A program made the position numbers and the translations under genes. A DNA stretch of 62,546 bases from the IMG/VR virus record IMGVR_UViG_3300021962_000102, positions 1-62,546 of that record; one strand, 5' to 3'. The notes beneath the pieces were generated by a model. That model saw only the letters and a list, made by a program, of their open reading frames with translations, was not told where the DNA came from and did no database searches. The DNA comes from a virus (lineage: Duplodnaviria > Caudoviricetes). This document shows, piece by piece, positions 6,111 to 57,328 of the stretch (within the stretch, counting starts at the first letter, position 1; every line of letters starts with the position of its first letter).

Positions 6111-6342
6111 GGCTGTAGAAGAACTCATAAAGGTTGCGCAAGAAAAAATCATCACAAATACAGAAGACGATGTGTCTGCTGATAGATTAAAAAATGCTGC
6201 TGCGACTAAGAAACTAGCTATATTTGACGCTTTTGAAATCCTATCAAGGATTCAAGAAGAGCAAGCTAGATTAGAAGACAGACCAGTAGAAAGAGAAGAT
6301 AAGCAAGCGTTTAAGGGATTCGCTGAGCGTAGATCAAAATAA
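6064..6342 (+). CDS. putative terminase small subunit
   Basis: Small helical protein directly upstream of and overlapping TerL. Confidence 0.5.
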   Translation: MDIQETKKSIIQAGHKAVEELIKVAQEKIITNTEDDVSADRLKNAAATKKLAIFDAFEILSRIQEEQARLEDRPVEREDKQAFKGFAERRSK

Positions 6343-8558
6343 TGTACGAACAAACTTTATATAGAGTAGTAGAACCTTTACGCATAAACACCGTAAAGAG
6401 ACTAAACAAATCTAAGAGTTGGAAGTACGGCTATGACAAAGAGCACGATATTGTTGTCATAAGCAAAACCGGCGAAATAGGCGATATATATGAAATTCAA
6501 AATCTCAAGATCGCTTTACCAAAGACGCCGCAGAGTGTGCATGAGTTTGAATCAGGGCGTTGGGAAGTACAAGAGTATCCTAGACAGTTGCGGTCAATAA
6601 AGACTATATTTGATTGGCGGGACACGGATGATTCTTTTAAGGTTAAATGGGAACAGTACATAGACGAAGAGTTCAATAGAAGGGAAAACGGTTTCTGGTT
6701 TAAGAATAACGGCACAAAGACATATATAACAGGTACACACTATATGTACTTACAGTGGTCTAAGATTGATGTTGGTAATCCAGACTTTAGAGAGGCAAAC
6801 AGACTTTTTTTTATTTTCTGGGAAGCTGTAAAAGCAGATAGTAGATGCTACGGAATGTGCTATCTAAAGAACAGACGTAGTGGTTTTTCATTTATGGCTA
6901 GCGGTGAGGTTGTTAATCAAGCAACTATAACATCGGATGCTAGATTTGGAATACTGTCTAAGACTGGTAACGATGCCAAAAAAATGTTCACAGACAAGGT
7001 TGTGCCTATATCTGTAAACTATCCTTTCTTTTTCAAGCCAATTCAAGATGGTATGGATAGACCTAAAACAGAATTAGCTTTTAGGGTTCCTGCGTCTAAA
7101 CTAACCAGAAAGAGAATATCATCTGGTGATCAGAGAGAAGAACTAGAAGGTCTTGACACAACAATAGACTGGAAAAACACAGGTGATAACTCGTACGACG
7201 GTGAAAAGCTAAAACTACTTATTCACGACGAGAGTGGAAAATGGGAAAGACCTGACAATATTCTAAATAACTGGCGCGTAACTAAAACGTGTTTACGTCT
7301 TGGTAGTAGGATAGTTGGAAAGTGCATGATGGGTTCAACATCAAATTCTTTGGAAAAAGGAGGAGATAACTTTAAAAACCTATACTACGATTCAGACGTA
7401 ACTCAGAGAAACAGAAACGGACAGACAAGGTCTGGACTTTATAGTTTGTTTATTCCAATGGAATGGAACTATGAGGGTTTTATAGATAAGTATGGTAATC
7501 CTGTTTTTGACACTCCAGAAGTAGCTGTAGAAGGTCCAGATGGACAATTAATATATGAAGGAGTAATACAGCACTGGGAAAACGAAGTAGACGGATTAAA
7601 GCATAGTCAAGATGCACTAAACGAATTTTACCGTCAGTTTCCAAGAACGGAGGAGCACGCGTTTAGGGATGAAATGAAAAATAGTCTATTTAATCTTGTT
7701 AAGATTTACGATCAAATAGACTACAACGAAGGACTTAGAAATTCTGGAGTCATAAGTGTTGGCAACTTCCAGTGGCGCAACGGAATACAAGATACTGAGG
7801 TTGTGTTTCATCCTGATCCTAATGGAAGATTTAAAATATCGTGGTTTCCACCTAAAAATCTTCAAAATAGTGTGATTGTAAAGAATGGGATGAAGTATCC
7901 TGGCAATGAACACTTAGGTGCATTTGGTTGTGACTCATATGATATATCTGGAACTGTTGACGGTAGAGGTTCAAAAGGAGCATTACACGGTTTAACGAAG
8001 TTCTCGATGGAAGATGTTCCACCATCAACGTTTTTTCTTGAATATATAGCTAGACCTCAAACTGCTGAAATATTCTTTGAGGATGTGTTGATGGCTATAG
8101 TTTTTTATGGTATGCCAATATTAGCAGAGAACGCTAAACCTAGATTACTGTACTACATAAGAAGAAGAGGTTATAGGGGTTTTTCAATGAATAGACCAGA
8201 TAGAAGAAGTAATCAACTATCTGTTACAGAAAGAGAAATAGGTGGCATACCTAACTCTAGTGAAGATATGAAGCAGGCACACGCTGCCGCTATAGAGATG
8301 TATATAGAAAATTATGTCGGGTATAATCCAGATACCGATACACACGGTACGATGTACTTTAACACTACGCTCAACGACTGGGCTAAGTTTGACATAAATA
8401 AAAGAACAAAGCATGACGCTTCTATTAGTTCTGGTTTGGCTATAATGGCATGCAATAGGCATCTTTACGCGCCAACGAAGACAATAGAAAGAGATGTTGT
8501 AAGTTTAGGTCTAGCAAGATTTAAAAATTCAGGGTTTTCATCCGAAATAATAAAATAA
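6342..8558 (+). CDS. terL: terminase large subunit
   Basis: KNRRSGFS Walker A, LLIHDESGK Walker B, GSTS motif, C-terminal nuclease (GCD, HDA). Confidence 0.9.
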   Translation: MYEQTLYRVVEPLRINTVKRLNKSKSWKYGYDKEHDIVVISKTGEIGDIYEIQNLKIALPKTPQSVHEFESGRWEVQEYPRQLRSIKTIFDWRDTDDSFKVKWEQYIDEEFNRRENGFWFKNNGTKTYITGTHYMYLQWSKIDVGNPDFREANRLFFIFWEAVKADSRCYGMCYLKNRRSGFSFMASGEVVNQATITSDARFGILSKTGNDAKKMFTDKVVPISVNYPFFFKPIQDGMDRPKTELAFRVPASKLTRKRISSGDQREELEGLDTTIDWKNTGDNSYDGEKLKLLIHDESGKWERPDNILNNWRVTKTCLRLGSRIVGKCMMGSTSNSLEKGGDNFKNLYYDSDVTQRNRNGQTRSGLYSLFIPMEWNYEGFIDKYGNPVFDTPEVAVEGPDGQLIYEGVIQHWENEVDGLKHSQDALNEFYRQFPRTEEHAFRDEMKNSLFNLVKIYDQIDYNEGLRNSGVISVGNFQWRNGIQDTEVVFHPDPNGRFKISWFPPKNLQNSVIVKNGMKYPGNEHLGAFGCDSYDISGTVDGRGSKGALHGLTKFSMEDVPPSTFFLEYIARPQTAEIFFEDVLMAIVFYGMPILAENAKPRLLYYIRRRGYRGFSMNRPDRRSNQLSVTEREIGGIPNSSEDMKQAHAAAIEMYIENYVGYNPDTDTHGTMYFNTTLNDWAKFDINKRTKHDASISSGLAIMACNRHLYAPTKTIERDVVSLGLARFKNSGFSSEIIK

Positions 8559-8561
8559 AAA

Positions 8562-10985
8562 ATGGCTGAATCAGTTGTAAAAAGTTACTTTCCTAGTCAA
8601 ATAGCTAGCGATAGAGAAAAAGCCAGTTACGAGTATGGCTTAAACGTAGCTAAAGCTATAGAGCAAGAGTGGTTTAAAGTGGATTCTGGTGTAAACAGAT
8701 TCTACAACAACCAAAATGCATTTCACAGCCTTAGACTTTACGCTAGAGGAGAGCAACCTATCCAAAAGTATAAAGACGAATTGGCTATCAATGGTGATTT
8801 GTCTTACTTGAATCTAGACTGGAAACCAGTTCCCATTATTCCTAAGTTTGTTGACATCGTAGTTAACGGAATAGCTGAAAGAACTTTTGAAATCAAAGCT
8901 TTTTCTCAAGACCCGTACGGCGTTTCTAAGAGAACAGCATATATGGAGTCTATTCTCAGAGACATGCAGACTAGGGAACTATCTGAGTTTGCACAAGAAG
9001 CATTTGGAGTAAACCTATTTGAGAACAATAAAGACGAACTTCCAGAAACCAAAGAAGAACTAGAAGTTCATATGCAGCTTAATTACAAGCAAGCAATAGA
9101 AATAGCTGCTGAACAAGCTATAAACACGATATTTGAAGGTAGTAAGTATGAGAACATAAAGAAAAGAATATACTACGACCTTACGGTCCTTGGCATTGGT
9201 GTTTCTAAAGACGTGTTTACTAAGAGTGAAGGAATCAAAGTTGAGTATGTAGATCCTGCAAACTTTATTTATTCATACACTGAGTCTCCATACTTTGAAG
9301 ATATCTACTACGCTGGAGAAATAAAGTCTATACCCATCAACGAGCTTAAAAAGCAGTTTCCAGAACTTACTGATGATGACCTAAAAGAAATTATTGCTCA
9401 GGGTATACAAAACAACAGAGTTAGAAGTAGCGGCGTTAGCGGTCATAATGAGATCGACGCTAACACTGTTCAGATAATGTACTTCAACTTCAAGACTTAC
9501 GCGAACGAAGTTTACAAGGTAAAAGAAACAGCTACTGGAGCAAGTAAGATTATAATTAAAGACGACGCATTTAATCCTCCTGCAGATATTGCTGAGCAGT
9601 TCTCTAAACTGTCAAGATCTCTTGAGGTTCTTTACGAAGGTGTTTTTGTTGTTGGTACAGAAAAACTCCTTAAATGGGAGATGGCCAAGAACGTGCTTAG
9701 ACCAAAGAGCGATTACACGAAAGTCAAACTCAATTACAGCATCGTAGCTCCTAGAATGTATAAGGGTCGTATAGAGTCTCTAGTTTCGCGTATAACTGGA
9801 TTCGCTGACATGATTCAATTGACACACCTTAAACTGCAACAGGTACTGTCTAGACTTGTTCCAGATGGCATCTATCTTGATGTTGATGGACTTGCTGAAA
9901 TCGATCTTGGAAACGGAACCAACTACAACCCGCAGGAAGCGCTTAATATGTTCTTCCAAACCGGTAGTATCGTAGGTCGTTCATTTACGTCAGATGGCGA
10001 TATGAACCCAGGTAAAGTTCCGATTCAAGAAATAACATCTGGATCTGGCGGAAATAAGATTCCTCAACTCATTAGTACGTATAATTATTACTTACAAATG
10101 ATAAGAGACGTCACTGGCCTCAACGAAGCAAGAGATGGTTCTACTCCAGATGCTAAAGCTTTAGTTGGTGTTCAGAAGTTAGCTGCTGCAAATTCAAACA
10201 CCGCAACCAGACATATTCTACAAGCTGGATTATTTATCACTTCTGACCTTGCCGAGAAAATAGCATTGAGAATATCAGACGTACTTGAGTACTCTCCTAC
10301 TAGGGAAGCTTTTGTTCAGGCTATAGGTGCTCACAATGTAGCTACGATGGATGAGATTTCTAATCTACATTTGCATGACTTTGGTATCTTTATAGATATA
10401 ATGCCAGACGCAGAAGAGAAACAAATGCTTGAGAATAACATTCAAGTTGCGCTAGCACAGCAGACTATAGACCTTGAAGATGCTATTGACATCAGAGAGG
10501 TTAAAAATATTAAGCTTGCTAACCAACTGTTGAAGATTAGAAGAAAGCGTAAACTTCAGCGCGATCAAATGATTACTCAGCAGAATATTCAAGCTCAAGC
10601 ACAGGCCAATGCGCAAACACAACAAGCCGTAGCTATTGCAGAGTCTCAGAAGATACAAGTTGAAACTGGAAGTAAAATCCAACTTGAACAAATGAAGTCA
10701 TCGCTTGCTTCTAAGAGATTAATGGAAGAAAAGCAGGCTAAGAAAGAGTTAATGCAATTTGAGTTTGAATTAAATATGAAACTCAAGCAAATGGAAGCTG
10801 GAGTTTATAAAGAAAAGGAGTCTTTTAAAGAAGATAGAAAAGACGACAGAGCGAAAATGCAAGCTTCACAACAGAGCCAGTTGATAGAGCAAAGAATGAC
10901 TGGTGGTGAGGCTAAAGATTTTGAATCAGCTGGTAATGACATAATTAGCGGTGATTTCAAATTAGGTTCATTTGAACCCAAGTGA
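8562..10985 (+). CDS. portal protein
   Basis: 807 aa, directly after TerL, helical, Q-rich coiled-coil C-terminus. Confidence 0.8.
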   Translation: MAESVVKSYFPSQIASDREKASYEYGLNVAKAIEQEWFKVDSGVNRFYNNQNAFHSLRLYARGEQPIQKYKDELAINGDLSYLNLDWKPVPIIPKFVDIVVNGIAERTFEIKAFSQDPYGVSKRTAYMESILRDMQTRELSEFAQEAFGVNLFENNKDELPETKEELEVHMQLNYKQAIEIAAEQAINTIFEGSKYENIKKRIYYDLTVLGIGVSKDVFTKSEGIKVEYVDPANFIYSYTESPYFEDIYYAGEIKSIPINELKKQFPELTDDDLKEIIAQGIQNNRVRSSGVSGHNEIDANTVQIMYFNFKTYANEVYKVKETATGASKIIIKDDAFNPPADIAEQFSKLSRSLEVLYEGVFVVGTEKLLKWEMAKNVLRPKSDYTKVKLNYSIVAPRMYKGRIESLVSRITGFADMIQLTHLKLQQVLSRLVPDGIYLDVDGLAEIDLGNGTNYNPQEALNMFFQTGSIVGRSFTSDGDMNPGKVPIQEITSGSGGNKIPQLISTYNYYLQMIRDVTGLNEARDGSTPDAKALVGVQKLAAANSNTATRHILQAGLFITSDLAEKIALRISDVLEYSPTREAFVQAIGAHNVATMDEISNLHLHDFGIFIDIMPDAEEKQMLENNIQVALAQQTIDLEDAIDIREVKNIKLANQLLKIRRKRKLQRDQMITQQNIQAQAQANAQTQQAVAIAESQKIQVETGSKIQLEQMKSSLASKRLMEEKQAKKELMQFEFELNMKLKQMEAGVYKEKESFKEDRKDDRAKMQASQQSQLIEQRMTGGEAKDFESAGNDIISGDFKLGSFEPK

Positions 10986-11020
10986 TATAATAATTATACA
11001 ATTTTTTAATATTTTATTTT

Positions 11021-12181
11021 ATGAACGAAGAAATTCAAAGAGATGATGCCAAATCCGATGATGGCGTTATACGCGTATTTATCCCATCAAACAAACAAGC
11101 AGATGAAATCAAAGACGAAACCTTGCGGGTGCAGCCCGATGAAGATGTGCAGCAAGCACAGCCCAGCGAAGATGGGAACGAAGAGCCCGGCGAAGATGTA
11201 CAACACCAAGAGCAGCCCGGCGAAGAAAGTAGGAATGAGGAACAAGGCCTGCTAGAAGAGGTAATCGATCTCCCTGCACAAGAGGAAGCTCAACCCGAGG
11301 AGTATCAATTATCTAAAGAGACTCAAGAAGAGCAAAAGCCAGAAAATAAAATTGAGTTACCAGAGAACATTGAAAAACTGGTAAACTTCATAAATGAAAC
11401 TGGTGGAACTATTGAGGACTATGTACTACTGAATCGCGATGTTGATTCACTTAACGAGTCCCAACTTATAAAAGAATACTATAAGCAAACAAAACCTCAT
11501 CTTAACGACGAGGAAATTCAGTTTCTTATAGAGGATCGATTCAGCTACGATGAAACACTCGATGATGAAATCGACATTAAAAGAAAGAAGTTAGCTTTCA
11601 AAGAAGAAGCTAGCTCGGCGAAGAAGCATCTTTCTAATATGAAAGATCGCTACTACGCTGAATTGAAGGCCGGTTCTAGATTAACTCAGGACCAACAAAA
11701 GGCAGTCGATTTCTTTAACCGTTATAACAAAGAGCAAGAGAGTGTAGCTAAGATTTCTGAACAACAGAAAAATGTATTTCTCAAGAAGACTGATGAGGTC
11801 TTCTCTAACGATTTCAAAGGTTTTGAATATGGCGTTGGCGATAAGAAATACAGATTCAATGTAAAGAATCCGAACGAAATCAAGAACTCCCAGAGCGACA
11901 TTAATAACTTCGTTAGAAAGTTTCTAAATAAAGAGAACGTTATTGAAGATGCTAAGGGATACCACAAGGCTTTGTTCACCGCTATGAACGCTGACGCTAT
12001 AGCTAATCACTTCTATGAGCAAGGAAAAGCTGATGCAATCAAAGAAAGCATCGCTAAGTCCAAGAACGTGGACATGCAGCCAAGAAGCCAACACGAGGGA
12101 GTATCTCAAGTTGGAGGAGTGCAAGTCCGTGCTGTCTCAGGTGATAGCAGCTCTAGGCTTCGAGTTAAGTTCAATAAATAA
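11021..12181 (+). CDS. capsid scaffolding protein
   Basis: Acidic disordered N-terminus, lies between portal and capsid genes. Confidence 0.65.
   Translation: MNEEIQRDDAKSDDGVIRVFIPSNKQADEIKDETLRVQPDEDVQQAQPSEDGNEEPGEDVQHQEQPGEESRNEEQGLLEEVIDLPAQEEAQPEEYQLSKETQEEQKPENKIELPENIEKLVNFINETGGTIEDYVLLNRDVDSLNESQLIKEYYKQTKPHLNDEEIQFLIEDRFSYDETLDDEIDIKRKKLAFKEEASSAKKHLSNMKDRYYAELKAGSRLTQDQQKAVDFFNRYNKEQESVAKISEQQKNVFLKKTDEVFSNDFKGFEYGVGDKKYRFNVKNPNEIKNSQSDINNFVRKFLNKENVIEDAKGYHKALFTAMNADAIANHFYEQGKADAIKESIAKSKNVDMQPRSQHEGVSQVGGVQVRAVSGDSSSRLRVKFNK
11103..11255 (+). CDS. overprinted small basic SPAKM-repeat protein (+1 frame of the scaffold gene)
   Basis: MKSKTKPCGCSPMKM..SPAKM..SPAKM..SPAKK; motif shared with ORF 57325..58788; A-rich leader. 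Confidence 0.5.
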   Translation: MKSKTKPCGCSPMKMCSKHSPAKMGTKSPAKMYNTKSSPAKKVGMRNKAC

Positions 12182-12205
12182 TAATAAACTCTAAAACATA
12201 TTACT

Positions 12206-13621
12206 ATGAGTTTTGTAAATGGTGGAGCATACCCTGCTGGGCTTACTCCTTCTCCCACTAAAACCCTTTTCGATAAGAACTACCTTTCGATTGGAGACAA
12301 TGATTTCAACTTCACGAAGCAATTCCTTCCTGAAGTATACGAAAAAGAAGTAGAGCGTTACGGTAACCGTACGGTTTCTGCTTTCTTGCGTATGGTTGGT
12401 GCTGAAATGCCTATGGCCTCTGACGAGGTTGTATGGACTGAGCAGGGCCGTCTTCACGTAGCATACGACGACGCTGTCATTGCTACCGTTAACGACAACA
12501 CCGACAACACGATCACTATTGCTAACCACGCTATCCGTGCTAACCAAACGATCGTTGTTGCAAAAGGTTACGATACCGTTCGTGCTTTTGTTAAGAGTGT
12601 TACCACCAACTCTATTGAGGCTTTCCCGTACGATGCTGCCACTTGGCCTGCTTCTTTCGTAGCCGCTGGCACGAATCCCGATTTGAAGGTTTTCGTATTC
12701 GGTTCTGAATTCGGTAAAGGTTCTGCTGGTATGCAGGGTTCTATTGACTCTGGTTTCCAGAAGTTCAGCAATAGCCCCATCATCATCAAGGACAAGTACA
12801 GCATCAACGGTTCTGACACTGCTCAGATCGGTTGGGTTGAGGTTACGTCTGAGCTTGGTACTTCTGGCTACCTGTGGTACCTGAAGTCAGAGCACGAGAC
12901 TCGCCTTCGTTTCGAGGACTACCTTGAGATGACGATGGTTGAAGCTGAAAAAGCTGCCGTTTCTATCACTGACGCTTCTTCTGCTACGGTTCGTGGTACG
13001 GAAGGTCTTTTCGCTGCCATTGAGTCTCGCGGTCTGGTATTCAACGACCACGACTTCAACAACTCAACTGGTCTTAACGGTCTTGCTGAGTTCGACCTTA
13101 TCCTTAAGGAGCTTGACAAGCAAGGTGCTATCGAAGAGAACATGCTGTTCCTGAACAGAGGTACTTCTTTGGCTATCGACAACATGCTTGCTCGCGCTAA
13201 CAGCTACGGTACTGGTGGTACTTCTTACGGAGTATTCAACAACTCAGCTGATATGGCTTTGAACCTTGGTTTCTCTGGTTTCCGTCGTGGTTCTTACGAC
13301 TTCTACAAAACCGACTGGAAATACTTGAACGATGCTGCTACTCGCGGTCTTACCGCTGACATCGACGGCGTACTCGTTCCTGCTGGTGTTTCTACGGTTT
13401 ACGACCAAACCCTTGGTAAGAACATCCAACGTCCGTTCTTGCACGTTCGCTACCGCGCTTCTGAAGCCGACGACCGTCGCATGAAGTCTTGGATCACTGG
13501 TTCTGTTGGTGGTAACTACACCAGCGACATCGACGAGATGAACGTTCACATGCTTTCTGAGCGCTGCTTGTGCGTTCAGGGTGCCAACAACTTCATCCTG
13601 TTCAAGCAAACCGCTGCCTAA
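12206..13621 (+). CDS. major capsid protein
   Basis: 471 aa after the scaffold; strongest high-expression codon bias; followed by a hairpin. Confidence 0.85.
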   Translation: MSFVNGGAYPAGLTPSPTKTLFDKNYLSIGDNDFNFTKQFLPEVYEKEVERYGNRTVSAFLRMVGAEMPMASDEVVWTEQGRLHVAYDDAVIATVNDNTDNTITIANHAIRANQTIVVAKGYDTVRAFVKSVTTNSIEAFPYDAATWPASFVAAGTNPDLKVFVFGSEFGKGSAGMQGSIDSGFQKFSNSPIIIKDKYSINGSDTAQIGWVEVTSELGTSGYLWYLKSEHETRLRFEDYLEMTMVEAEKAAVSITDASSATVRGTEGLFAAIESRGLVFNDHDFNNSTGLNGLAEFDLILKELDKQGAIEENMLFLNRGTSLAIDNMLARANSYGTGGTSYGVFNNSADMALNLGFSGFRRGSYDFYKTDWKYLNDAATRGLTADIDGVLVPAGVSTVYDQTLGKNIQRPFLHVRYRASEADDRRMKSWITGSVGGNYTSDIDEMNVHMLSERCLCVQGANNFILFKQTAA

Positions 13622-22517: not shown

Positions 22518-25500
22518 ATGGAAGATAATAAATCTTTGTTTCGTTACGACGGAAAAGACTACACTCGCGAACAGATAGATATAGCCGCTGCAGAAAGCGG
22601 TTTATCTTTTGATGATTATATAAGTGAATTTGGATTAGAGCCAATTGATCCTATAAAAAAGATAACGGCCACAGTGGGAGGTGCGACTGTGGATCCAAAA
22701 CCCAAAGCACCAAGTACGGCATCCAAGCCGGTCGCTACTTCATCGGCATCGAAATCAAGTCCGATCGTACCTGATCCAGTAAAGCAGGCAAAGCAAAATA
22801 TAGATTCAATATTGTCTAATCCGTTTAGCGCAGATGAACTTGATAATATTGAGGCTCAGGTAAACGCCAAGCCATCGGTTGGTGTTACTGCTACTACGTT
22901 TGTTGGCGGTATGGGTGGCGGTGTTCCAGTTGTAAGTAAAAAGCCAACATATCCATACGAATCTCAGATTAACGTTGCTAAAAAGCAACTTGGAGTTGGT
23001 GCTACTGAGCAACAGATAAATGATTTAGCTAAAAATCTATATAGAGAGGAGTTAAAGTCTAAACTGGTTAAAAGAAAAGTAGACAATGTACTAAATCAAC
23101 TTGAAGACGAGACAAATAACTGGCAGAGCGTTGGTGAATTTTTTGAATCAGGTCTTGTCACATTGTCAAATCTTGGCTTAGGCGGAAGTGGCCAAGGCGT
23201 TCAGCCAGCTAAGTCAACAAAAGAGAAGAGATACGAAGCTGCCAGACAAGATGTTTCAGCATATGCAACACAGAAGTTAAACGAGAGACAAAAACTGGTA
23301 AACAAATCTGTTGCTGGCGCTAAACTAGCTAGTGCTGTTGTAGAAACAAATATCAATCAATTAAAAGAGATTGAGAAGAACATAAAGAATTCTCAAGACG
23401 CTGTAGAACGCAATGATTTAATTAATCAATATAATGCTGTTCTTGATGACACTAAGTCTGCTGCTGCCGCTTTTGAAGAATACAACGGTGAAGTAAGAAA
23501 GAATATAGACTATGTAAACTACGGTTCTCAAATAGTAAAAGATATACCAAAGTCTTACAACGAGTTAGATGTTTTTGAGAATAGAGTATTTACAACCGCT
23601 CTTACAACCGCCGCTAATCTAGCTGAGTTTGGAGAGACGGGTTCTTTGTATATGCTTAAGGCGCATAATCCCTATGTTGATCCTCAAATAATCAAAGCCA
23701 CATACGCCACGCCTGCTGAATCTTTTGGTGAAGACGTAAGAGAAATAACTGATGCTGCCAGTGTTCAAGTTAGAGATCATAGACCACTTGGAGACATATC
23801 CTCTTGGTCTGACTTTGGCGAGTTTATGGTTGATCTTGCTGGAGACCAAGCTTTTAACACCGGTTTGATGTTTGCTACTGGCGGTGTTGCTGGCGGTGCA
23901 TTACTTGGAGCCGGCGCGGCGGGTGGCAAGATGACAGAGATGTGGGACGCTAGAGCTAAGGGTGAAAACATAAGCGACGCTAAGTTTTTAGGTACGGCAA
24001 TTATATACGGAGGAGCAGAATGGGGAAGTGAATACATCGGTTTCGGCCAGTTAAAGCGCTCTTCTAAAATACTGGCTGACGCACTAGATCAAGGTGCAGT
24101 AACGATGACGCAACTAGGAGAGTCTTTTGGTAAGAAACTTGGTTCTGGACTTCAAGAGTATGGCGTTAACGTGTCTCAAGAAGGTTTTACAGAAGCTGTT
24201 TCTCAACTTGGCCAAAATATCGCTGATATAACGCTACTTGGTCAAAATAAAAGCATATTTGAAGGAGTAGAAGAATCTTTTGTTACGGGTTCTTTGATGT
24301 CTGGTTTGATGTTTCAAGCTCCGACGGTTGTAGCTGGAACAGTTAAACTATTTAATACTGTAGATGAAGTAAAGCAGGTTGACATAAACCAGAAAGAAAT
24401 AAATAGATTAAAACTTCAGTCTATAGAATTATCAAAGCAGATAAAACAGAAAGAAAACGAGGGTGCTGATGCCGCCGAGATTCAAGGTATGTATAGCAAC
24501 AAGAAACAAATTGACGACGTAATAGACGATTTGGCGCTTGCTAACACGGCCTTAATGCAGACTGGTATAGAACGCATAGACAATCTAAGAGATATAGAAA
24601 AAAGCGCTGTTATAGAGCAGTCTAAAAAAATAGCTTTTGCAAATTCGCTAATAAAAAAATATCAAGACATGATTGACTCTAGTGTGGATCTAGATGAGTC
24701 AACAACGTCTGATTTAATAAGCGAAATAAAAAAACTAAACGAATACAAAGACTCTAGTATAGAAACAATAAATGATATAATCAAAGAGTCTGATTTCTCT
24801 AAAACGCTAGACAAAGCGTACAGTGCTATAGAGCAATTTTCTAGTTCAGAGAATGGAGTTCCAACTGATATAATGAAATTTAATGGAGACATTAAGACAA
24901 CATATCAGATGCAGCAGTTTCTTGAATCAGATAAGTTTGCAGCTTATGTAGAAAAAAGATACGGAAAAGAAAAGCTTCAGCAAATAAAGAACGAGGCTTA
25001 CAAGCAGATAAAATTAAACGCTGGTAAGTCTGGTCTAGACGCGTTTAAGTCGAATGAATCTAAGACCAAAGCAAATGCTTTGTTTTTGACTTTCCCAAAC
25101 TTTGACTTAGCTGATGGCACTGAAGTTGAAATGCCTAGGTTTATAGTTTTAAATACTAAAAACGGTCTACACCACGAAACTGGTCACGCAACATTGTTTA
25201 GTGCAATTAGAGAGTCGTACGGAACAGATATTCTATCTACGATGTCTGACTCACTGTTGACTGAACTTAATGCTATTTTTGAATCAGATCCTGATAAGTA
25301 CGAATACGCGTCTAGATTCATAAAGAAACGTGTAGCGATGTACGAACAGCAACACGCTGACTACATAAAGAAATACGCGAACCATCCAGAAATAGAAAAT
25401 ATCACCGCCTGGTCTGAATCTAGACTTGCTGAAGAAAAACTAATAGCTTTCCTTGATTACGTAAAAGATTCGAAGCTAGAGGTAAAAAATGAAGCTAGAT

Positions 25501-28500
25501 TAAAAAATATATTCAAGGCAGTATCAAACGTTCTGGGAAAGGATAAAATGCAAACCTACAACGTTAGAGATGGCAAGGATGTGATGAATATGCTTAGGTC
25601 ATTTAACATGCACTTCGACAAGAAGGACATCGGTACAATGATAAGAAGCATTAATGAAAAGAAACTTCTTGCTGACAATAAGCTTTCTGAGATAGATTCT
25701 AATCTTAAGAAATCAGCAGATATCTTCAGAAAGATAATGAAGTCATTTGCTTCTCTTGCTGATGATATAAAGCCAAGTGCACATCCAAACTCAATACAGG
25801 CTGATAAAGTAAACAAGCTGTACGAAGAAAAAGGTGTTGAAGCAGCTTACGAAATAGCTGAACTATACGGAGGCATGTTGCGCAATGTACTTAGAAGATT
25901 TAAGTATTTGCCTAATTACGAGAACTTCGTAGAGGATATAATGGACGCCGTTAAATACGGAGATAGAGGTTTGTTTGGACTTATAAAGTCTTTTGATCCA
26001 GAGCGTGGTGTTCCTTTAGCTGCATACATAAACAAATACTTAAGCAAGAGAGCACTTGGCTACATAACTGAATACTTAAATCCAGAAGCTGGGTTTATGA
26101 AAGACGTTACTGAGCAGAAAGGCTTAATGGCAGAAGAAGAATACGACTTTGAGATTGATAAGCCAGAGCGTTCACATTCTGTTATACGCAAGTTCTTAGG
26201 ACTTAGCGAAGACCAAATGAATAAGGTTAGAAAGGCAGTTATAAACGCACTAGTATTTAACCCAGACATTCATAAGAAAAGAAAGTGGGTTCCTAGTGAG
26301 TTTAAGAGCGAACTTCTAAAGTCTTTTGAGCTTGACTTGTTTAATCTTGTTAAGTCAGATATATTCCCAAGCAAAAACCAAGATTGGTACCAGTATGCTG
26401 ATCAGATGTATGAATGGATTATAAACGAAGTTCCTATGGAAGTTTGGTTGAGATCCGGCGTTAGCATATTCTACGAGCCAGACATCGACCCAGTAAACAA
26501 TAAGCAAAAAAGGATGACGCCAGGTGAAGCTGAAATGGCTGGTGTTGCAGATATAAATTCTGGTAGATACAAGTGGATTGCTAAAAAGCCGACTAAAGAA
26601 CAGTGGATGGAATACATAAAGGCAGAAGGTATTAATCCAAACACTGGAAAGCCTTATTCTTGGACTACTGTTGGTACTAGAAAAGATACTATAGCCAAAA
26701 TTCTAGCTAGAGAGATGGCTTTTGATGCTACTCTAGAGGTCTTGCAAAATCCAGAACAGCCAACGTACGACTTTGATGGAAATCCAGACGGAGGAAGCAT
26801 AAATGTGATTCACAGAATGACATTGATGTCAGGACAAGAGTATAACAAACTCGCCGTTGTAGCTCAAGTTGCAGATATAATAAACAGAGACCCTAGAGTT
26901 ATGTTTAGTCTATCTGATGGCGGTTCTGTTGATAATAGATCAGCTGCGGCTGCGTTATTCGCAGAAGCTGAACTTATATTCCAAGAAATGGAAATTGTGT
27001 CTGAAGACGTTTCTGACTTGGCCGACGCGTACTCTAGTATCATAATAGATATACTAGATGAAAAGATGAAGGCCGCCGGAATGAAACCAATGTCTGAGAC
27101 TAAGAAGTTAGAGATAATTGAATCTGTACTGGCTATTAAATTCAAGGACGAAAGCAAAGAAAGCGAAGCCTGGAACAAAATCAGGACAGCCGGTATGATT
27201 AGTGTTGCTAAAAGTCTTTCTCAAGCTAGAGCAAAGAGCAAAACACTAATAGAAAGCAACGCACAAACCGCTAGAGAAATAGCTAATGAGATCAGACAAG
27301 AGATAGGTCTTTCTATGACTGCCAGAGAGAAAGAACTTAGCGATAGATTCAATAAGCTTTTGGAAAAGACTTTTGGAATAAAGCAAGGTAAAGTGTTCTC
27401 TGATTTCGATGCTCAAGTTGCGGCAAGCAAGCGATCTATACTTAAGAGTATGGAACTTATGCCTGTGACTGCTGAAGATTTTATTGGTCTTCTATATAGA
27501 ACTTTGTCTCCTGGCAAAGATGGCGAAGATCAAATGGCTTTTTATAGAAAATTCCTTTTGTATCCTTTCTACGACGGGGCAACAAGACACGACGCTGCGC
27601 GTGTTAGAATACTTAGCGGTTATAAAAAGTTAATCCAAGTAAAAAACAACAAGCACAAGCAGTTTAAAAAGATAGCATTCGGAAACTATACTATAGAACA
27701 CGTAATCAGAATAGCCATATGGAATAAGACTGGCGAATCTATAAGTGGTATTAGTTCTGAAGACGTTAAGTCAGCTATTGACTTTGCTAGAAAGATGCCT
27801 TGGGTCAATGAGATCGCAGACGATATAATTGAGATAATGGCACCAGATGGTTATGGTAAGCCACAGCAGAACTGGTTTTTGGGTAACATCGAAAACGATC
27901 TATACAACGCCATAAACGGTCATGTAAGAAAGAATAGAATGAAGGAGTTTGCTACAAACGCCGACGCTATATTCAATGAGTATAATATGAACAAAATACA
28001 AGCTGTGCTTGGTGGTTCATACAGGTTTGCTCTTCAGAACACACTTGAGCGGATGAAGTCTGGTAAGAACAGAATCGCAACTCAAAACGCTTGGGAAAGA
28101 AAGCTCAACAACTGGATAAATGGTTCTGTAGGTGCAATCATGTTCTTGAACATGCGAAGCGCCGTGCTTCAGCTTGTTTCTATGGGTAACTATATAAACT
28201 GGTCTGACAACAATCCAGTTGCTATCGCTAAGGCATACGCTAACACGAAGCAAATGGGTCAAGACATACTCAAGCTTTGGAACTCTGACTTTATGGTTAC
28301 TCGTAGAGATGGTCGTAAGATTGATATCAACGAGGCTGAATTGGTAGAGATGCTAGAAGAGTCTGGTGCTAATCTTGGAAAAATAATCAACTGGATTATA
28401 CAAAAAGGATTCACGCCTACGCAAGTTGCTGACTCAATGGCCATTATACTTGGTGGTGCTCCGTTCTACAGAAATAGAGTTAATACATACCTAAAAGAAG

Positions 28501-29399
28501 GTATGGATTTGAAGAAAGCAGAAGACAAAGCATTTCTTGATTTCAGAGAAACAACTGAAGAATCTCAACAGTCTTCTAGACCAGACCGTATATCACCACA
28601 GCAAGCTAGCTCAGCTGGTAGAATAATCTTGGCATTTGCTAACACTCCAGCTCAGTATTCTAGATTGATGATCAAAGCGGCTAAAGATATAAAGAACGGC
28701 AGAGGCGATCTTAAGACAAACATAAGCAAAATTGCTTACTACGCTATTATTCAGAATATGATATTTAGCTATATGCAGCAGGGTTTGTTTGCGTTATTAT
28801 TCTCTGACGACGAAGAAGAGGTTTCAGAAAAAGAAGCTACAGATTTGATCAACAGTGCCGCTGATTCTATACTTCGCGGTTTTGGAATACAGGGCGCGAT
28901 AATCTCTACATTGAAAAACGTAGCTATAGAATACGGTAGACAAGCAGAAGCGGGAAGATTTAAATCAGATAAAATCTTGCTTCAAGCTGCTAGTATATCT
29001 CCTCCTATTGGAAACAAGGTTAGAAAGATAAACAACATAATGTATAATTCTAGCCAAGTAACAAAAGAAGCCAAGAAGACTGGAGAATATGACTTTACTT
29101 CTAGACCAACTTTAGAAATTGCTGCTGGAGCTATAGAACTAGGTACCAACTTGCCATTGACTAGAGCATTGTCTAAATATGATAACGTCATATCAGCAAT
29201 GAACGAGGACACGCATGTTGTACTTAGAACAGCGATGCTATTTGGTTGGCCAGAGTGGCAATTAATCAAAGAAGAAGATGAAAAATCGTACAAGCCAATG
29301 TCTCAAGATGAATTCGTTGAGCAGATTAAGTCTAAGCAAACCGAAGACTCTGGAGCAATGAGCGAAGAAGATTATATAAACAGTTTAAACAAAAAATAA
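22518..29399 (+). CDS. giant ejection/polyvalent protein with zincin HExxH and sigma70 region-2-like domains
   Basis: 2293 aa; Gly-rich membrane-like segments; HHETGH at 25170; GLFGLIKSFDPERGVPLAAYINKYL at 25968. Confidence 0.7.
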   Translation: MEDNKSLFRYDGKDYTREQIDIAAAESGLSFDDYISEFGLEPIDPIKKITATVGGATVDPKPKAPSTASKPVATSSASKSSPIVPDPVKQAKQNIDSILSNPFSADELDNIEAQVNAKPSVGVTATTFVGGMGGGVPVVSKKPTYPYESQINVAKKQLGVGATEQQINDLAKNLYREELKSKLVKRKVDNVLNQLEDETNNWQSVGEFFESGLVTLSNLGLGGSGQGVQPAKSTKEKRYEAARQDVSAYATQKLNERQKLVNKSVAGAKLASAVVETNINQLKEIEKNIKNSQDAVERNDLINQYNAVLDDTKSAAAAFEEYNGEVRKNIDYVNYGSQIVKDIPKSYNELDVFENRVFTTALTTAANLAEFGETGSLYMLKAHNPYVDPQIIKATYATPAESFGEDVREITDAASVQVRDHRPLGDISSWSDFGEFMVDLAGDQAFNTGLMFATGGVAGGALLGAGAAGGKMTEMWDARAKGENISDAKFLGTAIIYGGAEWGSEYIGFGQLKRSSKILADALDQGAVTMTQLGESFGKKLGSGLQEYGVNVSQEGFTEAVSQLGQNIADITLLGQNKSIFEGVEESFVTGSLMSGLMFQAPTVVAGTVKLFNTVDEVKQVDINQKEINRLKLQSIELSKQIKQKENEGADAAEIQGMYSNKKQIDDVIDDLALANTALMQTGIERIDNLRDIEKSAVIEQSKKIAFANSLIKKYQDMIDSSVDLDESTTSDLISEIKKLNEYKDSSIETINDIIKESDFSKTLDKAYSAIEQFSSSENGVPTDIMKFNGDIKTTYQMQQFLESDKFAAYVEKRYGKEKLQQIKNEAYKQIKLNAGKSGLDAFKSNESKTKANALFLTFPNFDLADGTEVEMPRFIVLNTKNGLHHETGHATLFSAIRESYGTDILSTMSDSLLTELNAIFESDPDKYEYASRFIKKRVAMYEQQHADYIKKYANHPEIENITAWSESRLAEEKLIAFLDYVKDSKLEVKNEARLKNIFKAVSNVLGKDKMQTYNVRDGKDVMNMLRSFNMHFDKKDIGTMIRSINEKKLLADNKLSEIDSNLKKSADIFRKIMKSFASLADDIKPSAHPNSIQADKVNKLYEEKGVEAAYEIAELYGGMLRNVLRRFKYLPNYENFVEDIMDAVKYGDRGLFGLIKSFDPERGVPLAAYINKYLSKRALGYITEYLNPEAGFMKDVTEQKGLMAEEEYDFEIDKPERSHSVIRKFLGLSEDQMNKVRKAVINALVFNPDIHKKRKWVPSEFKSELLKSFELDLFNLVKSDIFPSKNQDWYQYADQMYEWIINEVPMEVWLRSGVSIFYEPDIDPVNNKQKRMTPGEAEMAGVADINSGRYKWIAKKPTKEQWMEYIKAEGINPNTGKPYSWTTVGTRKDTIAKILAREMAFDATLEVLQNPEQPTYDFDGNPDGGSINVIHRMTLMSGQEYNKLAVVAQVADIINRDPRVMFSLSDGGSVDNRSAAAALFAEAELIFQEMEIVSEDVSDLADAYSSIIIDILDEKMKAAGMKPMSETKKLEIIESVLAIKFKDESKESEAWNKIRTAGMISVAKSLSQARAKSKTLIESNAQTAREIANEIRQEIGLSMTAREKELSDRFNKLLEKTFGIKQGKVFSDFDAQVAASKRSILKSMELMPVTAEDFIGLLYRTLSPGKDGEDQMAFYRKFLLYPFYDGATRHDAARVRILSGYKKLIQVKNNKHKQFKKIAFGNYTIEHVIRIAIWNKTGESISGISSEDVKSAIDFARKMPWVNEIADDIIEIMAPDGYGKPQQNWFLGNIENDLYNAINGHVRKNRMKEFATNADAIFNEYNMNKIQAVLGGSYRFALQNTLERMKSGKNRIATQNAWERKLNNWINGSVGAIMFLNMRSAVLQLVSMGNYINWSDNNPVAIAKAYANTKQMGQDILKLWNSDFMVTRRDGRKIDINEAELVEMLEESGANLGKIINWIIQKGFTPTQVADSMAIILGGAPFYRNRVNTYLKEGMDLKKAEDKAFLDFRETTEESQQSSRPDRISPQQASSAGRIILAFANTPAQYSRLMIKAAKDIKNGRGDLKTNISKIAYYAIIQNMIFSYMQQGLFALLFSDDEEEVSEKEATDLINSAADSILRGFGIQGAIISTLKNVAIEYGRQAEAGRFKSDKILLQAASISPPIGNKVRKINNIMYNSSQVTKEAKKTGEYDFTSRPTLEIAAGAIELGTNLPLTRALSKYDNVISAMNEDTHVVLRTAMLFGWPEWQLIKEEDEKSYKPMSQDEFVEQIKSKQTEDSGAMSEEDYINSLNKK

Positions 29400-54699: not shown

Positions 54700-54707
54700 T
54701 AAATTTG
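54700..54707 (+). promoter_or_regulatory. -7 box TAAATTTG upstream of groEL
   Basis: Exact TAnnTTTG, 27 nt before ATG 54735. Confidence 0.5.
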
Positions 54708-54734
54708 TGTAGTGTTACACAAAAAATTACTATA

Positions 54735-56306
54735 ATGGAATACAATAATCCAAGTGAACTCATTAAAGAGTTGACATTCAGCGCCAGGGCTAGAAACAGA
54801 ATGAAACAAGGCGTTGACAAACTAGCAGCCGCAGTTTCATCAACGTTGGGGGCCAGCGGAAAGTGCGTTATATATGAAGACGCTATGGGTAGACCCATTA
54901 TCACTAAGGATGGTGTTACTGTAGCTGAGTCAGTTGTACTTAAAGACCCGCTAGAAAACATCGGCGCAACGCTTATCAAGGAAGCCGCAAAAAATACTGT
55001 TAAAGAAGCTGGTGACGGAACAACCACCGCTACGGTGCTTTCACACGCTATCCTTACGCACGCATACGAGATTATAGAAAACGAAAACCTTCGTGAACTA
55101 AAGAAAGGTATCGAACAAGCGACAAACGACGTGATTGACTTACTGGAGTCAGCCAAGGTGGAGGTATCTGGAGACATGCTTTACTCTGTCGCCAACATAT
55201 CCACGAATAATGATTCAGAGCTGGCAAAAGTGATTTCAGAAGCATTCACAGCCGTTGGTAACAGCGGCGTTGTCCTAATGGAGGAGTCTGAAACAGACCT
55301 AACGCACGTTGAGATAGTAGACGGCGTACAGTTTGACTCTCCACTCAAGTCGCAGCACTTTATTACAGACGCGGACAAAGAAAAAGCCGTTCTGGAAAAC
55401 CCATATGTACTTATCATGGACTCTAAAATTCCTAATATTAGGAGAATACAAGGAGTTCTAGAATTTGTAATCAAGCAAAATAGATCGTTGCTTATTATCG
55501 CAGACATCGAACAGCAGCCACTCGGTGCACTGTTGATGAACAAGGTACGCGGTAATATCAAGGTCAATGTTGTGGATCAGCCCGGCTTTGGACCAACGCG
55601 GCGTGATACGCTTGAAGACCTAGCTGCAATAACCGGTGCTAAACTCATTTCTGATGAACTGGGTGACGATATCGATTCAATATCTGTTGATGCGCTGGGA
55701 GAGGCCGTAAAAGCCGTTACGGATGGAAAAAACACCGTTATCACTGTTGAAGAGACGAGTGAACTGGTTAGCGAGCGCTTAGCGATTGCTGAGGTAAAAC
55801 TTAAAAGCGAGCAAAATCCGTTTTTCAAAAAGAAGATCGAACAGCGCGTAGCAATGCTTAGCGGTAAGGTTGGTATTGTAAGAGTTGGTGCTAACTCTAA
55901 AATAGAGTTGAAAGAAAAGAAAGATCGTGTTGAAGACGCTATCTACGCTGTTAAGGCCGCTATTCAAGAAGGAATTATCCCAGGCGGTGGTATCGCACTA
56001 CTTAACGCATCGGCAAAACTAAATAAAACTGGAAACTCCAATGGCTACAATGTAGTGCTTAACGCAATTATGGAGCCTTGGATCAAAATAATGACAAATG
56101 CCGACCTAAATCCAGAAGATAGGAAGTACAAAAAGATGAAGCCAGGTCAAGGCGTTGATGTAGTGACTGGAGAAATTGTTGATATGGTTGAGGCTGGTAT
56201 CATTGACCCGCTACTAGTTACTAAGACAGCGCTGAAAAACGCGTCGTCAGTTGCCGCAACTATTATATCGGCAGACGCTGTTATCTCTAACGTTAGAATC
56301 GATTAA
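54735..56306 (+). CDS. groEL: chaperonin GroEL
   Basis: ITKDGVTVA, AGDGTTTATVL, PGFG, RVEDA, PGGG, GIIDP; no GGM tail. Confidence 0.95.
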   Translation: MEYNNPSELIKELTFSARARNRMKQGVDKLAAAVSSTLGASGKCVIYEDAMGRPIITKDGVTVAESVVLKDPLENIGATLIKEAAKNTVKEAGDGTTTATVLSHAILTHAYEIIENENLRELKKGIEQATNDVIDLLESAKVEVSGDMLYSVANISTNNDSELAKVISEAFTAVGNSGVVLMEESETDLTHVEIVDGVQFDSPLKSQHFITDADKEKAVLENPYVLIMDSKIPNIRRIQGVLEFVIKQNRSLLIIADIEQQPLGALLMNKVRGNIKVNVVDQPGFGPTRRDTLEDLAAITGAKLISDELGDDIDSISVDALGEAVKAVTDGKNTVITVEETSELVSERLAIAEVKLKSEQNPFFKKKIEQRVAMLSGKVGIVRVGANSKIELKEKKDRVEDAIYAVKAAIQEGIIPGGGIALLNASAKLNKTGNSNGYNVVLNAIMEPWIKIMTNADLNPEDRKYKKMKPGQGVDVVTGEIVDMVEAGIIDPLLVTKTALKNASSVAATIISADAVISNVRID

Positions 56307-56307
56307 T

Positions 56308-56562
56308 ATGAGAGCAGTTAATTACTACCTGATAGTCAAAAAGTTGAAGCAAGAGGTCGTCAACGTTGGCGGCCTTGAGCTTAACGATGCACTTGCTGAG
56401 CAGCGTTATTTAAAGGCAGAAGTTATTTCTGCTGGAGATAAAGTTGATTTTGTCAAGGAAGGTGAAGTTGTATACTATGACCGTCACGCTGGACACGAAA
56501 TAACTTTTGAAGAAAACGTTTATCAAGTCATCAAAGTCGGTGATATTGTAATAGTAGAATGA
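56308..56562 (+). CDS. groES: co-chaperonin GroES
   Basis: LIVKK..GGLEL..AEVISAG..VKEGEVVYY; follows groEL. Confidence 0.85.
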   Translation: MRAVNYYLIVKKLKQEVVNVGGLELNDALAEQRYLKAEVISAGDKVDFVKEGEVVYYDRHAGHEITFEENVYQVIKVGDIVIVE

Positions 56563-56999
56563 GGTTGAGTTCGCACGACATCCGCGATCTAAAGTTGTTC
56601 AAATACTATAGGTTAGTGAGAAAGTGGGCGTGTGATCAGAATGGCCTTAACGATGCAGATCTAGAATTACTTATGTATCTAGACTGCTTGGGTAGATTTA
56701 ACCGAAAAGACTATATGGACGGAACGTATGCATATCGTTGGGATAAGCATCGTTGGGAACGCCTAAGATCAGAAGGTTGGATCTCCGTTTGGAGAGAACG
56801 CAATAGAACGACACAGAAGTACGCTATATATCAAGTTTCTCAAAAGGGTAAAAACCTTATAATGCGCATATACAGAATTCTTCTTGGTGAAGAAGATGTT
56901 ACGCTAAGTAGTAGAAGCGTTTATTACAATAATAAGTCATACACCGCTAAAGTTAGAAACAAGGCGATAGATGACATGGTAAAAGACAAAGACAGATGA
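56559..56999 (+). CDS. MarR-like winged-helix protein
   Basis: GLNDADLELLMYL...GWI...YQVSQKGK. Confidence 0.55.
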   Translation: MRLSSHDIRDLKLFKYYRLVRKWACDQNGLNDADLELLMYLDCLGRFNRKDYMDGTYAYRWDKHRWERLRSEGWISVWRERNRTTQKYAIYQVSQKGKNLIMRIYRILLGEEDVTLSSRSVYYNNKSYTAKVRNKAIDDMVKDKDR

Positions 57000-57328
57000 C
57001 AAAGCCAATAACGCATAAGGCGAAAAACCACGAGAACAATAGAAGGATGATGAATCCAACTATAGTTATTGTAGATTTAGAGCCTGGCGTTGTAGCCGAG
57101 GCCAATATAGACGGAAGTATATACATAGACAGAAAAGCATCTCCTAGTAAGATGAAAGAAGCTGTGTCTCATGAGAAAGTGCATTTAAATCAGATGAGTA
57201 GAGGTGATCTTTCTTATGACTCACAAAACGTTTACTGGAAGGGTAAGATCTACAACAGAAACAATATGAACGAGGGCAGCGGAAGTCTTCCCTGGGAAAA
57301 AGAAGCATATAAAAAAGCTAAGAAATGA
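56996..57328 (+). CDS. zincin-like metallopeptidase
   Basis: IYID...HEKVH...PWEKEAY. Confidence 0.7.
   Translation: MTKPITHKAKNHENNRRMMNPTIVIVDLEPGVVAEANIDGSIYIDRKASPSKMKEAVSHEKVHLNQMSRGDLSYDSQNVYWKGKIYNRNNMNEGSGSLPWEKEAYKKAKK

Follow-up and report, generated by a model that had tools for sequence, protein, structure and literature searches.

Does the acidic linker of a scaffold-like head gene in a marine tailed phage also encode, in its +1 reading frame, a second and strongly basic protein? The question is raised by IMGVR_UViG_3300021962_000102, a virus record in IMG/VR of 62,546 bases (99% complete; G+C 39%) that was analyzed at its full length and is called the window throughout. Within its scaffold-like gene (11021..12181, + strand; 386 aa), an overprinted +1 open reading frame (ORF) of 50 codons and a TAG stop occupies 11103..11255 (+), with the product MKSKTKPCGCSPMKMCSKHSPAKMGTKSPAKMYNTKSSPAKKVGMRNKAC; the peptide and its repeats are exactly as an earlier sequence-only reading of this DNA had described them. 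Our results make it probable that this ORF truly codes for protein, as a gene that lies out of frame within the scaffold-like gene, in its 5′ third. The window by itself is not convincing, and the case for a real gene rests on comparative evidence. Specifically, the dual coding that the sequence-only reading had proposed for the acidic N-terminus of the scaffold is upheld by an open frame in relatives, by frame-specific selection, and by a selected +1 gene at the same position elsewhere.

Read in +1, the scaffold-like gene offers an open stretch at 11025..11255, with ATGs at 11043 and 11046, which would give a 70-aa ORF, and at 11103. Read from 11103, the peptide has 50 aa, an isoelectric point (pI) of 10.2, 13 Lys plus Arg, no Asp or Glu, four Cys, six Met, and one His; frame 0 over the same 11103..11255 stretch encodes 18 Asp plus Glu with a pI of 4.05. 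Four 15-nt units on the + strand (11133-11147, 11160-11174, 11184-11198, and 11214-11228) read SPMKM, SPAKM, SPAKM, and SPAKK in the +1 frame and QPDED, QPSED, EPGED, and QPGEE in frame 0. At the DNA level, the SPxK[MK] stretches all repeat a single unit, AGC CCR NNG AAG AWR, which frame 0 reads as [QE]P[DSG]E[DE]. That the repeats are seen in both frames, and that base mirrors acid (GAA GAT becoming AAG ATG), is an automatic outcome of the genetic code. The CCG/CCA difference between units, to which the sequence-only reading had drawn attention, is indeed synonymous in +1 and changes D, S, or G in frame 0; alone, it carries no statistical weight. Tandem Repeats Finder reported nothing on 10900..11500, the units being too short and too spaced, and a six-frame search for the motif SP.K[MKLIY] returned 8 occurrences vs 5.2 ± 2.3 in 50 shuffles.

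Scanning IMG/VR and Joint Genome Institute (JGI) metagenomes with the +1 peptide and the scaffold N-terminus yielded 10 further sequences with the window's type of peptide (type C), in about five lineages: L082 (= L083 = L084) with L170, whose lineage has 93% nucleotide identity to the window over the gene; L085; L086/L087; L088/L172; L214; and L179/L221. The metagenome scan for further members returned only variants of known lineages (L170, L171 = L088, and L172). In all 10 relatives the +1 frame is open, an ATG stands at the aligned start, C-G-C is followed by C and then by C or H, and four to six SPxK units are present; stops in the +1 frame of close relatives, which the sequence-only reading had named as the observation to look for, occur in none of the 10. 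The Cys/His cluster (11124..11159, +) reads C-G-C-x5-C-x2-H in the window, L082, and L085 and C-G-C-x4-C-x-C in L086-L088, L214, and L179, with C8, G9, C10, and C16 of the peptide invariant in 7/7 aligned sequences. Beneath the repeat units, frame 0 varies (QPSED, EPGED, KSGED, QSGED, ESVQN) while the +1 frame stays S-P-x-K (SPAKM or SPYKM), so that within the unit frame 0 keeps no invariant residue and +1 retains S, P, and K, a comparison that is illustrative only because the units were selected by their +1 motif. The relatives also speak to the start site. A +1 stop closely precedes the conserved ATG in the L086 (L086-L088), L214, and L179 lineages, which places the start of the conserved gene at the equivalent of 11103 and not at that of 11043, in favor of the MKSK start that had first been proposed. 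The possible upstream extension (11043..11102, +; ATGs at 11043 and 11046) is closed in all but the window, L082/L170, and L085 lineages, and its conservation is explained by frame 0, because the stretch overlaps the frame-0 motif DDGVIRVF.

The frame-specific conservation that was to be expected of a dual-coding region is present in these sequences. Frame-0 divergence was expressed as the Nei-Gojobori proportion of synonymous differences (pS) and compared between the overlap and the region downstream with the Fisher test. It is 0.51 in the overlap vs 0.88 downstream for the window and L086 (p 1e-4; the downstream value being near saturation), 0.34 vs 0.56 for the window and L085 (p 0.044), and 0.65 vs 0.83 for L085 and L086 (p 0.089). 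The corresponding nonsynonymous proportion (pN) of frame 0 is higher in the overlap than downstream, and +1 pN/pS is 0.47-0.82 in the overlap vs 1.2-2.3 in the downstream control. Substitutions were further counted along the 10 edges of a minimum spanning tree (MST) among the 11 sequences, edges that are only roughly independent. In the frame-0-guided alignment, which is the conservative one, 63 changes were nonsynonymous in frame 0 and synonymous in +1 vs 45 of the reverse kind (p 0.009; mutational expectation 0.456), and the +1-guided alignment of the 11 sequences gave 61 v 36 (p 7e-4). Changes nonsynonymous in both frames were depleted (109/217, or 0.50 vs 0.62 expected; p 3e-4). Codon choice adds to this picture: all four frame-0 Pro codons in the window's overlap are CCC, vs 15/231 in ten structural genes, and in the L086 clade CCC makes up 5/6 of the frame-0 Pro codons in the overlap, where the +1 frame needs CC.

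The same slot in more distant phages provides the second line of comparative evidence. More than 600 homologs of the scaffold-like gene were found in IMG/VR, of which 160 were examined and, together with the type-C set, gave 146 distinct 5′ regions. A +1 ORF that could be classed was present in 116 of these, and in 108 it was of a recognizable type: 71 of an MPFKS type (starting MPFKS.xQ), 20 of a second type (..EWL..MPSPQKNKKKY..), 11 of the window's type, and 6 of a short MPYGKKS type; other +1 ORFs of at least 35 aa accounted for 8. The +1 ORFs sit just after the frame-0 motif DDGxIKVDL, and the +2 frame of the homologs showed nothing (median ATG-ORF of 0). MPFKS-type peptides occurred in 34 of the first 80 homolog loci, of the 11 type-C loci and the 34 MPFKS-type loci that the anchor picked out every one has the ATG, and in the MPFKS-type loci a +1 stop precedes that ATG by 0-13 codons.

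For the MPFKS type, the signal of purifying selection on the +1 frame is clear. Nucleotide diversity in the overlap at frame-0 positions 1, 2, and 3 was 0.444, 0.389, and 0.329, with its peak where +1 has its wobble base, and downstream it was 0.265, 0.177, and 0.483. Over 28 MST edges, changes favored the +1-synonymous class by 126 v 43 (p 9e-14), or 117 v 42 with the anchor codons removed (p 1.6e-11); the controls came out as they should, with 51 v 67 (p 0.36) in the acidic stretch past the +1 stop and 24 v 159 in the C-domain. The second +1 type gave 156 v 75 (p 1.5e-8), with a loose 4-residue anchor and 4 unrelated rows included. Two members of this second type depart from the pattern, L037 by an internal stop and L053 by a truncating deletion, so the nested gene is not intact in every genome. 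In this group of phages, a genuine small gene thus sits after the portal, at the start of the scaffold.

The MPFKS type belongs to a broader family of small proteins, with 160 called members at E<=1e-3 and a weak match to phrog_1375 (function unknown). Among 78 further IMG/VR loci, the gene was free-standing in 29; it was nested at +1 inside a longer open frame of 390-439 aa (20 loci), 1248-2517 aa (8 loci), or 105-186 aa (8 loci); and it was nested in another frame in 1, overlapped only on the opposite strand in 5, and the N-terminus of a longer product in 7. Free-standing copies mostly lie in modules for the head or for packaging: for 13 such loci, the nearest large flanking gene was a portal in 5, a large terminase in 2, a tail fiber in 1, and a gene with no PHROG hit in 5; in L091 the order is portal, small gene, scaffold, and major head protein. 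AlphaFold2 confidently predicted a helical hairpin for the MPFKS peptide (predicted local distance difference test [pLDDT] 84-93 over residues 1-30), followed by a disordered basic tail. A tblastn search of the peptide against 50,697 phage records gave no match. Membership in DUF3008, for which an apparent likeness and an ESM Atlas value of 0.81 were no more than a lead, was rejected, as 0/17 free-standing members matched it at E<=1.

The frames that surround this family are themselves diverse. MPFKS ORFs lie at +1 inside the 1248-2517-aa frames of L093, L094, L095, L112, L130, L142, L148, and L150; the giant frame of L094 matches DarB-like antirestriction PHROGs (E 1e-38), and that of L142 holds DUF3293. 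Giant ORFs of this sort may constitute another class of host for the overprinted family. Long products that begin with the MPFKS motif occur in L123 (4001..6781, 926 aa), L158 (4001..5833, 610 aa, which also carries DUF6321), and L127 and L129 (4001..4561, 186 aa). Further, a scaffold N-terminus read in frame 0 is followed by an MPFKS +1 peptide in two called proteins, P0002 and P0010, and the order is reversed in a third, P0014; each is a single sequence, and they may be assembly frameshifts or natural fused variants.

The peptide of the window resembles the MPFKS family in being small, basic, and placed at +1 of the scaffold gene after the DDGxIKVDL motif. It differs in sequence and predicted fold: the family starts M-P-F-K-S-[KE]-x-Q and forms a helical hairpin (..P.IAK.W.K.YG), whereas the window's peptide starts MKSKTKPCGC and has no helices. 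Some of the MPFKS peptides finish with one or two SPxK[ML] units (GSPAKLK, GSPFKMK) or with ..M.MC..H.., and such ends may be a trace of common origin with the window's peptide, which is only an impression. In position and frame the window's peptide is the counterpart of the MPFKS gene; kinship between the two sequences is not demonstrable.

Against a nested gene at 11103..11255 stand several results, which are best weighed together with an alternative that we regard as improbable: that the ORF is an untranslated by-product, the +1 frame being open since an acidic, hydrophobic-poor linker rarely makes stops and SPAKM being a second reading of a QPxED DNA repeat. When the scaffold protein was held fixed and its synonymous codons were redrawn from phage usage (5000 draws), a +1 ATG-ORF of at least 70 codons arose in 12.9% of draws and one of at least 51 codons in 31.9%, so that its length is not significant; nor is it in five type-C lineages (P 0.07-0.20), and only 6/84 loci were individually significant at p<=0.05. 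The linker yields few +1 stops because these need T at frame-0 codon position 2, that is, hydrophobic residues, which are scarce there (T at position 2: 0.17 in the linker vs 0.24). The repeat is a DNA repeat whose units inside one genome are not independent. The closest pair, the window and L082/L170, shows no drop in pS (0.21 in the overlap vs 0.18; Fisher p 0.80) and no frame bias in its substitution counts (5 v 6 v 6-7). When the frame test was limited to the 8 type-C sequences found first, with frame-0-guided alignment, it was not significant (30 v 27, p 0.29). The slot is also not always filled: 30 of the 146 5′ regions have no +1 ORF or a short one, and the Elemovirus homolog (L175 1267..2286; MT497071.1, one of 74 matched phage records and the sole cultured relative examined) has many +1 stops and no nested ORF. 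A homolog search with the window's peptide among 5.8 billion called proteins of 27-88 aa found none, its comparison with the MPFKS profile by hhalign gave a probability of 0.6% (E 0.09) and hence no detectable homology, and that profile matched nothing in any frame of the whole window at E<=10. RNA contigs from two metatranscriptome runs, from an approximately 95%-identical relative, span only 11522..12200, outside the overlap, and are evidence neither way. What an untranslated by-product does not account for is the depressed synonymous divergence of frame 0 in the overlap, clearest between the window and L086; the excess of +1-synonymous changes and the deficit of doubly nonsynonymous ones; the rare CCC codon kept in two lineages separated by saturated synonymous divergence; the S, P, K, and Cys pattern kept while frame-0 residues vary; and the clear +1 selection on neighboring types at the same position.

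Other explanations accept the constraint and assign it elsewhere. A nucleic-acid element, in which conservation of the G+C-rich repeat AGCCCRGCGAAGATG at the DNA or RNA level, as the binding site of a protein or as a structure, constrains the synonymous sites of frame 0, would fit the local G+C island (0.54 at the repeat region vs 0.39 for the genome) found in all lineages, the near invariance of the unit at the nucleotide level, and an RNA folding z of -1.97, with 9/200 shuffles folding as well or better. We consider it very unlikely, given that the units vary at the +1 wobble position (AGC/AGT, CCA/CCG, AAG/AAA) and at the x codon, although they were picked by their +1 motif; that the constraint reaches the unrepeated CGC..C part and the ATG; that the folding signal is marginal and no Rfam match was found at E<=1; and that the MPFKS and second types lack such a repeat and yet are +1-selected. 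Ribosomal frameshifting from the scaffold frame, which would fuse the scaffold N-terminus to a basic tail, is suggested by the lack of +1 stops as far back as 11025, the fifth base of the scaffold gene, in the window, L082, and L085, and also by the chimeric proteins described above; the chimeras are single sequences and may be assembly errors. The ATG kept in every type-C and anchor-found MPFKS-type locus, together with +1 stops shortly upstream of it in the MPFKS loci and, by a few codons, in the L086, L214, and L179 lineages, makes frameshifting more remote still. Finally, there might be no overlap at all, with the scaffold starting downstream of 11255 and the small gene being an ordinary free-standing one, as the MPFKS gene is in other phage lineages, in some of them between portal and scaffold. 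This is scarcely credible here: frame 0 contains no ATG after codon 1 until about codon 205, it is open through the linker in 80/80 homologs (378-430 aa), the motif DDGxI[KR]V.. lies upstream of the overlap in 48/80, and constraint is seen in both frames. The host frame is thus coding across the overlap too.

If the nested gene is real, its product would be a 50-aa, strongly basic peptide, predicted to be disordered, with a C-x-C...C-x2-H cluster and four S-P-x-K-[M/K] units. Initiation would probably be independent, at ATG 11103 on the late head-module mRNA. The leader before ATG 11103 is A-rich and free of a Shine-Dalgarno sequence, as are those of other genes in this phage, a pattern compatible with a host among the Bacteroidota. 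AlphaFold2 gave the peptide a mean pLDDT of 55.6 and no secondary structure (with a shallow alignment), consistent with predicted disorder. The peptide has no hydrophobic stretch (grand average of hydropathy -0.94) and hence no candidate N-terminal transmembrane helix, and Pfam searches of the +1 peptides returned nothing near curated cut-offs. The Cys/His cluster might form a metal-binding mini-domain. Canonical zinc knuckles are spaced CX2CX4HX4C; the window's cluster, C-x-C-x5-C-x2-H, is spaced differently.

The peptide would occupy the slot, after the portal and at the scaffold start, that an MPFKS-type +1 gene holds in many relatives and that a free-standing gene holds between portal and scaffold in some others. 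The likeliest history is that a small gene already stood beside the scaffold gene and was then overlapped as the scaffold protein gained an acidic N-terminal extension under low constraint, basic +1 codons (AAG, ATG) pairing naturally with acidic frame-0 codons (GAA, GAT). In function, the peptide would most likely be a helper of head assembly or DNA packaging that binds electrostatically to DNA, or to acidic surfaces of the scaffold or of the portal interior, through its SPKK-like units and perhaps a metal-bound knuckle. Given a real gene, we hold the chances of a head-assembly or DNA-related role to be about evenly balanced; packaging of the peptide in virions, as the sequence-only reading had supposed, is rather doubtful. 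The widest form of the proposal is unlikely when taken as a whole: that a large group of marine, probably Bacteroidota-infecting tailed phages has an unannotated class of tiny basic peptides as a regular part of the head module, concealed by being encoded mostly at +1 of the scaffold gene and, in other phages, within giant DarB-like ORFs; that the window's version acts as a phage "protamine," packaged with or onto the DNA, or as a clamp on the acidic scaffold tail; and that SPAKM is a recognition unit shared with a second ORF of the same phage for one common partner.

That second ORF, Ser/Thr-rich and 487 aa long (57325..58788, +), starts MKSKP, carries SPLKI (57355) and an exact SPAKM (58645), and ends ..FKMKGFNK. 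The sequence-only reading had noted that the MKSK start and SPAKM recur in it; the motif does recur, the start is MKSKP, and what the two products share is a short motif, homology between them not being shown. Both ends of the ORF (MKSKPITAKASPLKIKEE.. and ..SPAKMWGD..GGGFKMKGFNK) are kept in the L082 phage (L173 1171..2475, -), in a copy with a diverged middle that is 53 aa shorter, and a homolog is present in 1/5 related records. Searches of PHROG and Pfam with this ORF gave nothing. The frame-0 N-terminus of the Elemovirus homolog, MFKMKLEG, recalls the FKMK ends of other proteins. Next to ORF 57325..58788, a 110-aa ORF (56996..57328, +), identical in the L082 phage, holds a HEKVH (HExxH) motif and SPSKM (57140) and matches phrog_10499 (E 9e-8) and phrog_16532 (E 2e-7), both of unknown function; it may be a small metallopeptidase beside the SPAKM-bearing ORF. 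Before these lie a GroEL-type chaperonin (54705..56306, +; PF00118, E 9e-58; phrog_5725, E 9e-134) and an overlapping 103-aa ORF with a TTG start (56251..56562, +) that looks GroES-like by eye.

The same unit recurs in other phages. When 1.84 billion representatives were searched by HMMER with the type-C profile, four hits resulted, two of which (E 7e-5 and 2e-4) are proteins of 128-132 aa built of MPYGKKSPAKMGHKSPAKMGH-like units. The MPYGKKSPAKMGH-repeat proteins (P0122, P0123, and loci L256-L264) are Met-, His-, and Lys-rich, with [KH]SPAKM(G) units, and are encoded by free-standing genes of 119-235 aa in the order GroEL, 146 aa, about 100 aa, and repeat protein (GroEL being upstream in L257 and L263). 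ORF 57325..58788 is their positional counterpart in the same GroEL arrangement and matches them by BLASTP at E 5e-4 over 65 aa. Of five records with such repeat genes, four hold a scaffold homolog, and all four of those carry an MPFKS-type +1 ORF, which indicates that the repeat proteins are separate genes. They also have a core (KQE.KNL..NPV...SWMSKHS) and a MPYGKKSP start that are absent from the window's peptide, only the units being shared. SPAKM thus recurs within this group of phages and is found in no fewer than two different genes.

The host gene itself lies in the late block of the genome, in which the large terminase (6342..8558) is followed by the portal (8562..10985, +; phrog_6547 portal protein, E 5.8e-155), directly upstream of the scaffold-like gene, and a virion structural, capsid-like gene (12206..13621, +; phrog_13704, E 1.6e-100) lies directly downstream of it. 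The 386-aa product comprises an N-terminal motif, the overprinted acidic linker, and a conserved C-domain from about residue 100. It matched nothing in Pfam or PHROG, and its homolog in Elemovirus (Flavobacterium phages) carries the annotation "structural protein"; we infer the name scaffold from its place between the portal and the capsid-like gene and from its acidic composition. A blastn search of 10700..11700 against the 50,697 phage records gave no match. Elsewhere in the structural block, a 2293-aa ORF (22518..29399, +) has no PHROG match at E<=1e-3.

If our reading of 11103..11255 as a gene is correct, the annotation of hundreds of phage genomes from the environment is missing a component of the head module, since gene callers skip same-strand genes nested in another frame. 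The relatives would further offer a natural series for how overlaps arise, from free-standing genes to genes inside scaffold-like frames of about 400 aa, inside giant ORFs, or fused. They would also provide a case in which the short +1 frame is the older, more constrained reading and the host frame a disordered acidic extension. SPAKM and its variants are flagged here as a short unit with no known function that recurs in several proteins of these phages. A full-text literature search, covering listings and the openings of abstracts, found no description of this scaffold-gene overlap; searches for DUF3008 and MPFKSK found no paper, and one for Elemovirus found none of relevance.

How does this arrangement compare with known systems? 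Units of the SPKK type in histone tails bind and compact DNA, the canonical unit being S/T-P-K/R-K/R. The peptide of the window is like such tails in carrying tandem S-P-x-K units within a very basic, disordered stretch, the tails in question being those of histone H1 and sperm histone H2B, whose SPKK-type motifs are a subject of PMC9903204. It is unlike the eukaryotic motifs in that its units are S-P-x-K, none is the canonical tetrapeptide, and only the last reads SPAKK.

Out-of-frame nested genes are known in phages, and here we add a further case, in the head module of a tailed phage. In phiX174, a small single-stranded DNA phage, the lysis gene E, which encodes a membrane protein, is nested in the +1 frame of gene D, which encodes the external scaffolding protein. 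This is the closest analog, being a short, out-of-frame, same-strand gene with its own start wholly inside a phage scaffolding gene. Unlike E, the window's ORF resides in a tailed double-stranded DNA phage of about 62 kb, its product has no hydrophobic segment, no lysis role is suggested for it, and its slot neighbors belong to a family that is also free-standing. In phage lambda, Rz1 is nested in the +1 frame of Rz; both are spanin lysis genes, Rz1 is a lipoprotein, and across phages the pair may be nested, overlapped, or separate. Rz/Rz1 is likewise an out-of-frame nesting in a tailed double-stranded DNA phage, in which Rz1 works in the same process as Rz, whereas the module of the window is one of head assembly and the product is basic, disordered, and Cys- and Met-containing. 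The present case is unusual in the range of states that the small gene takes across related genomes: it may stand alone, lie inside a scaffold-like frame or a giant ORF, or be part of a fusion.

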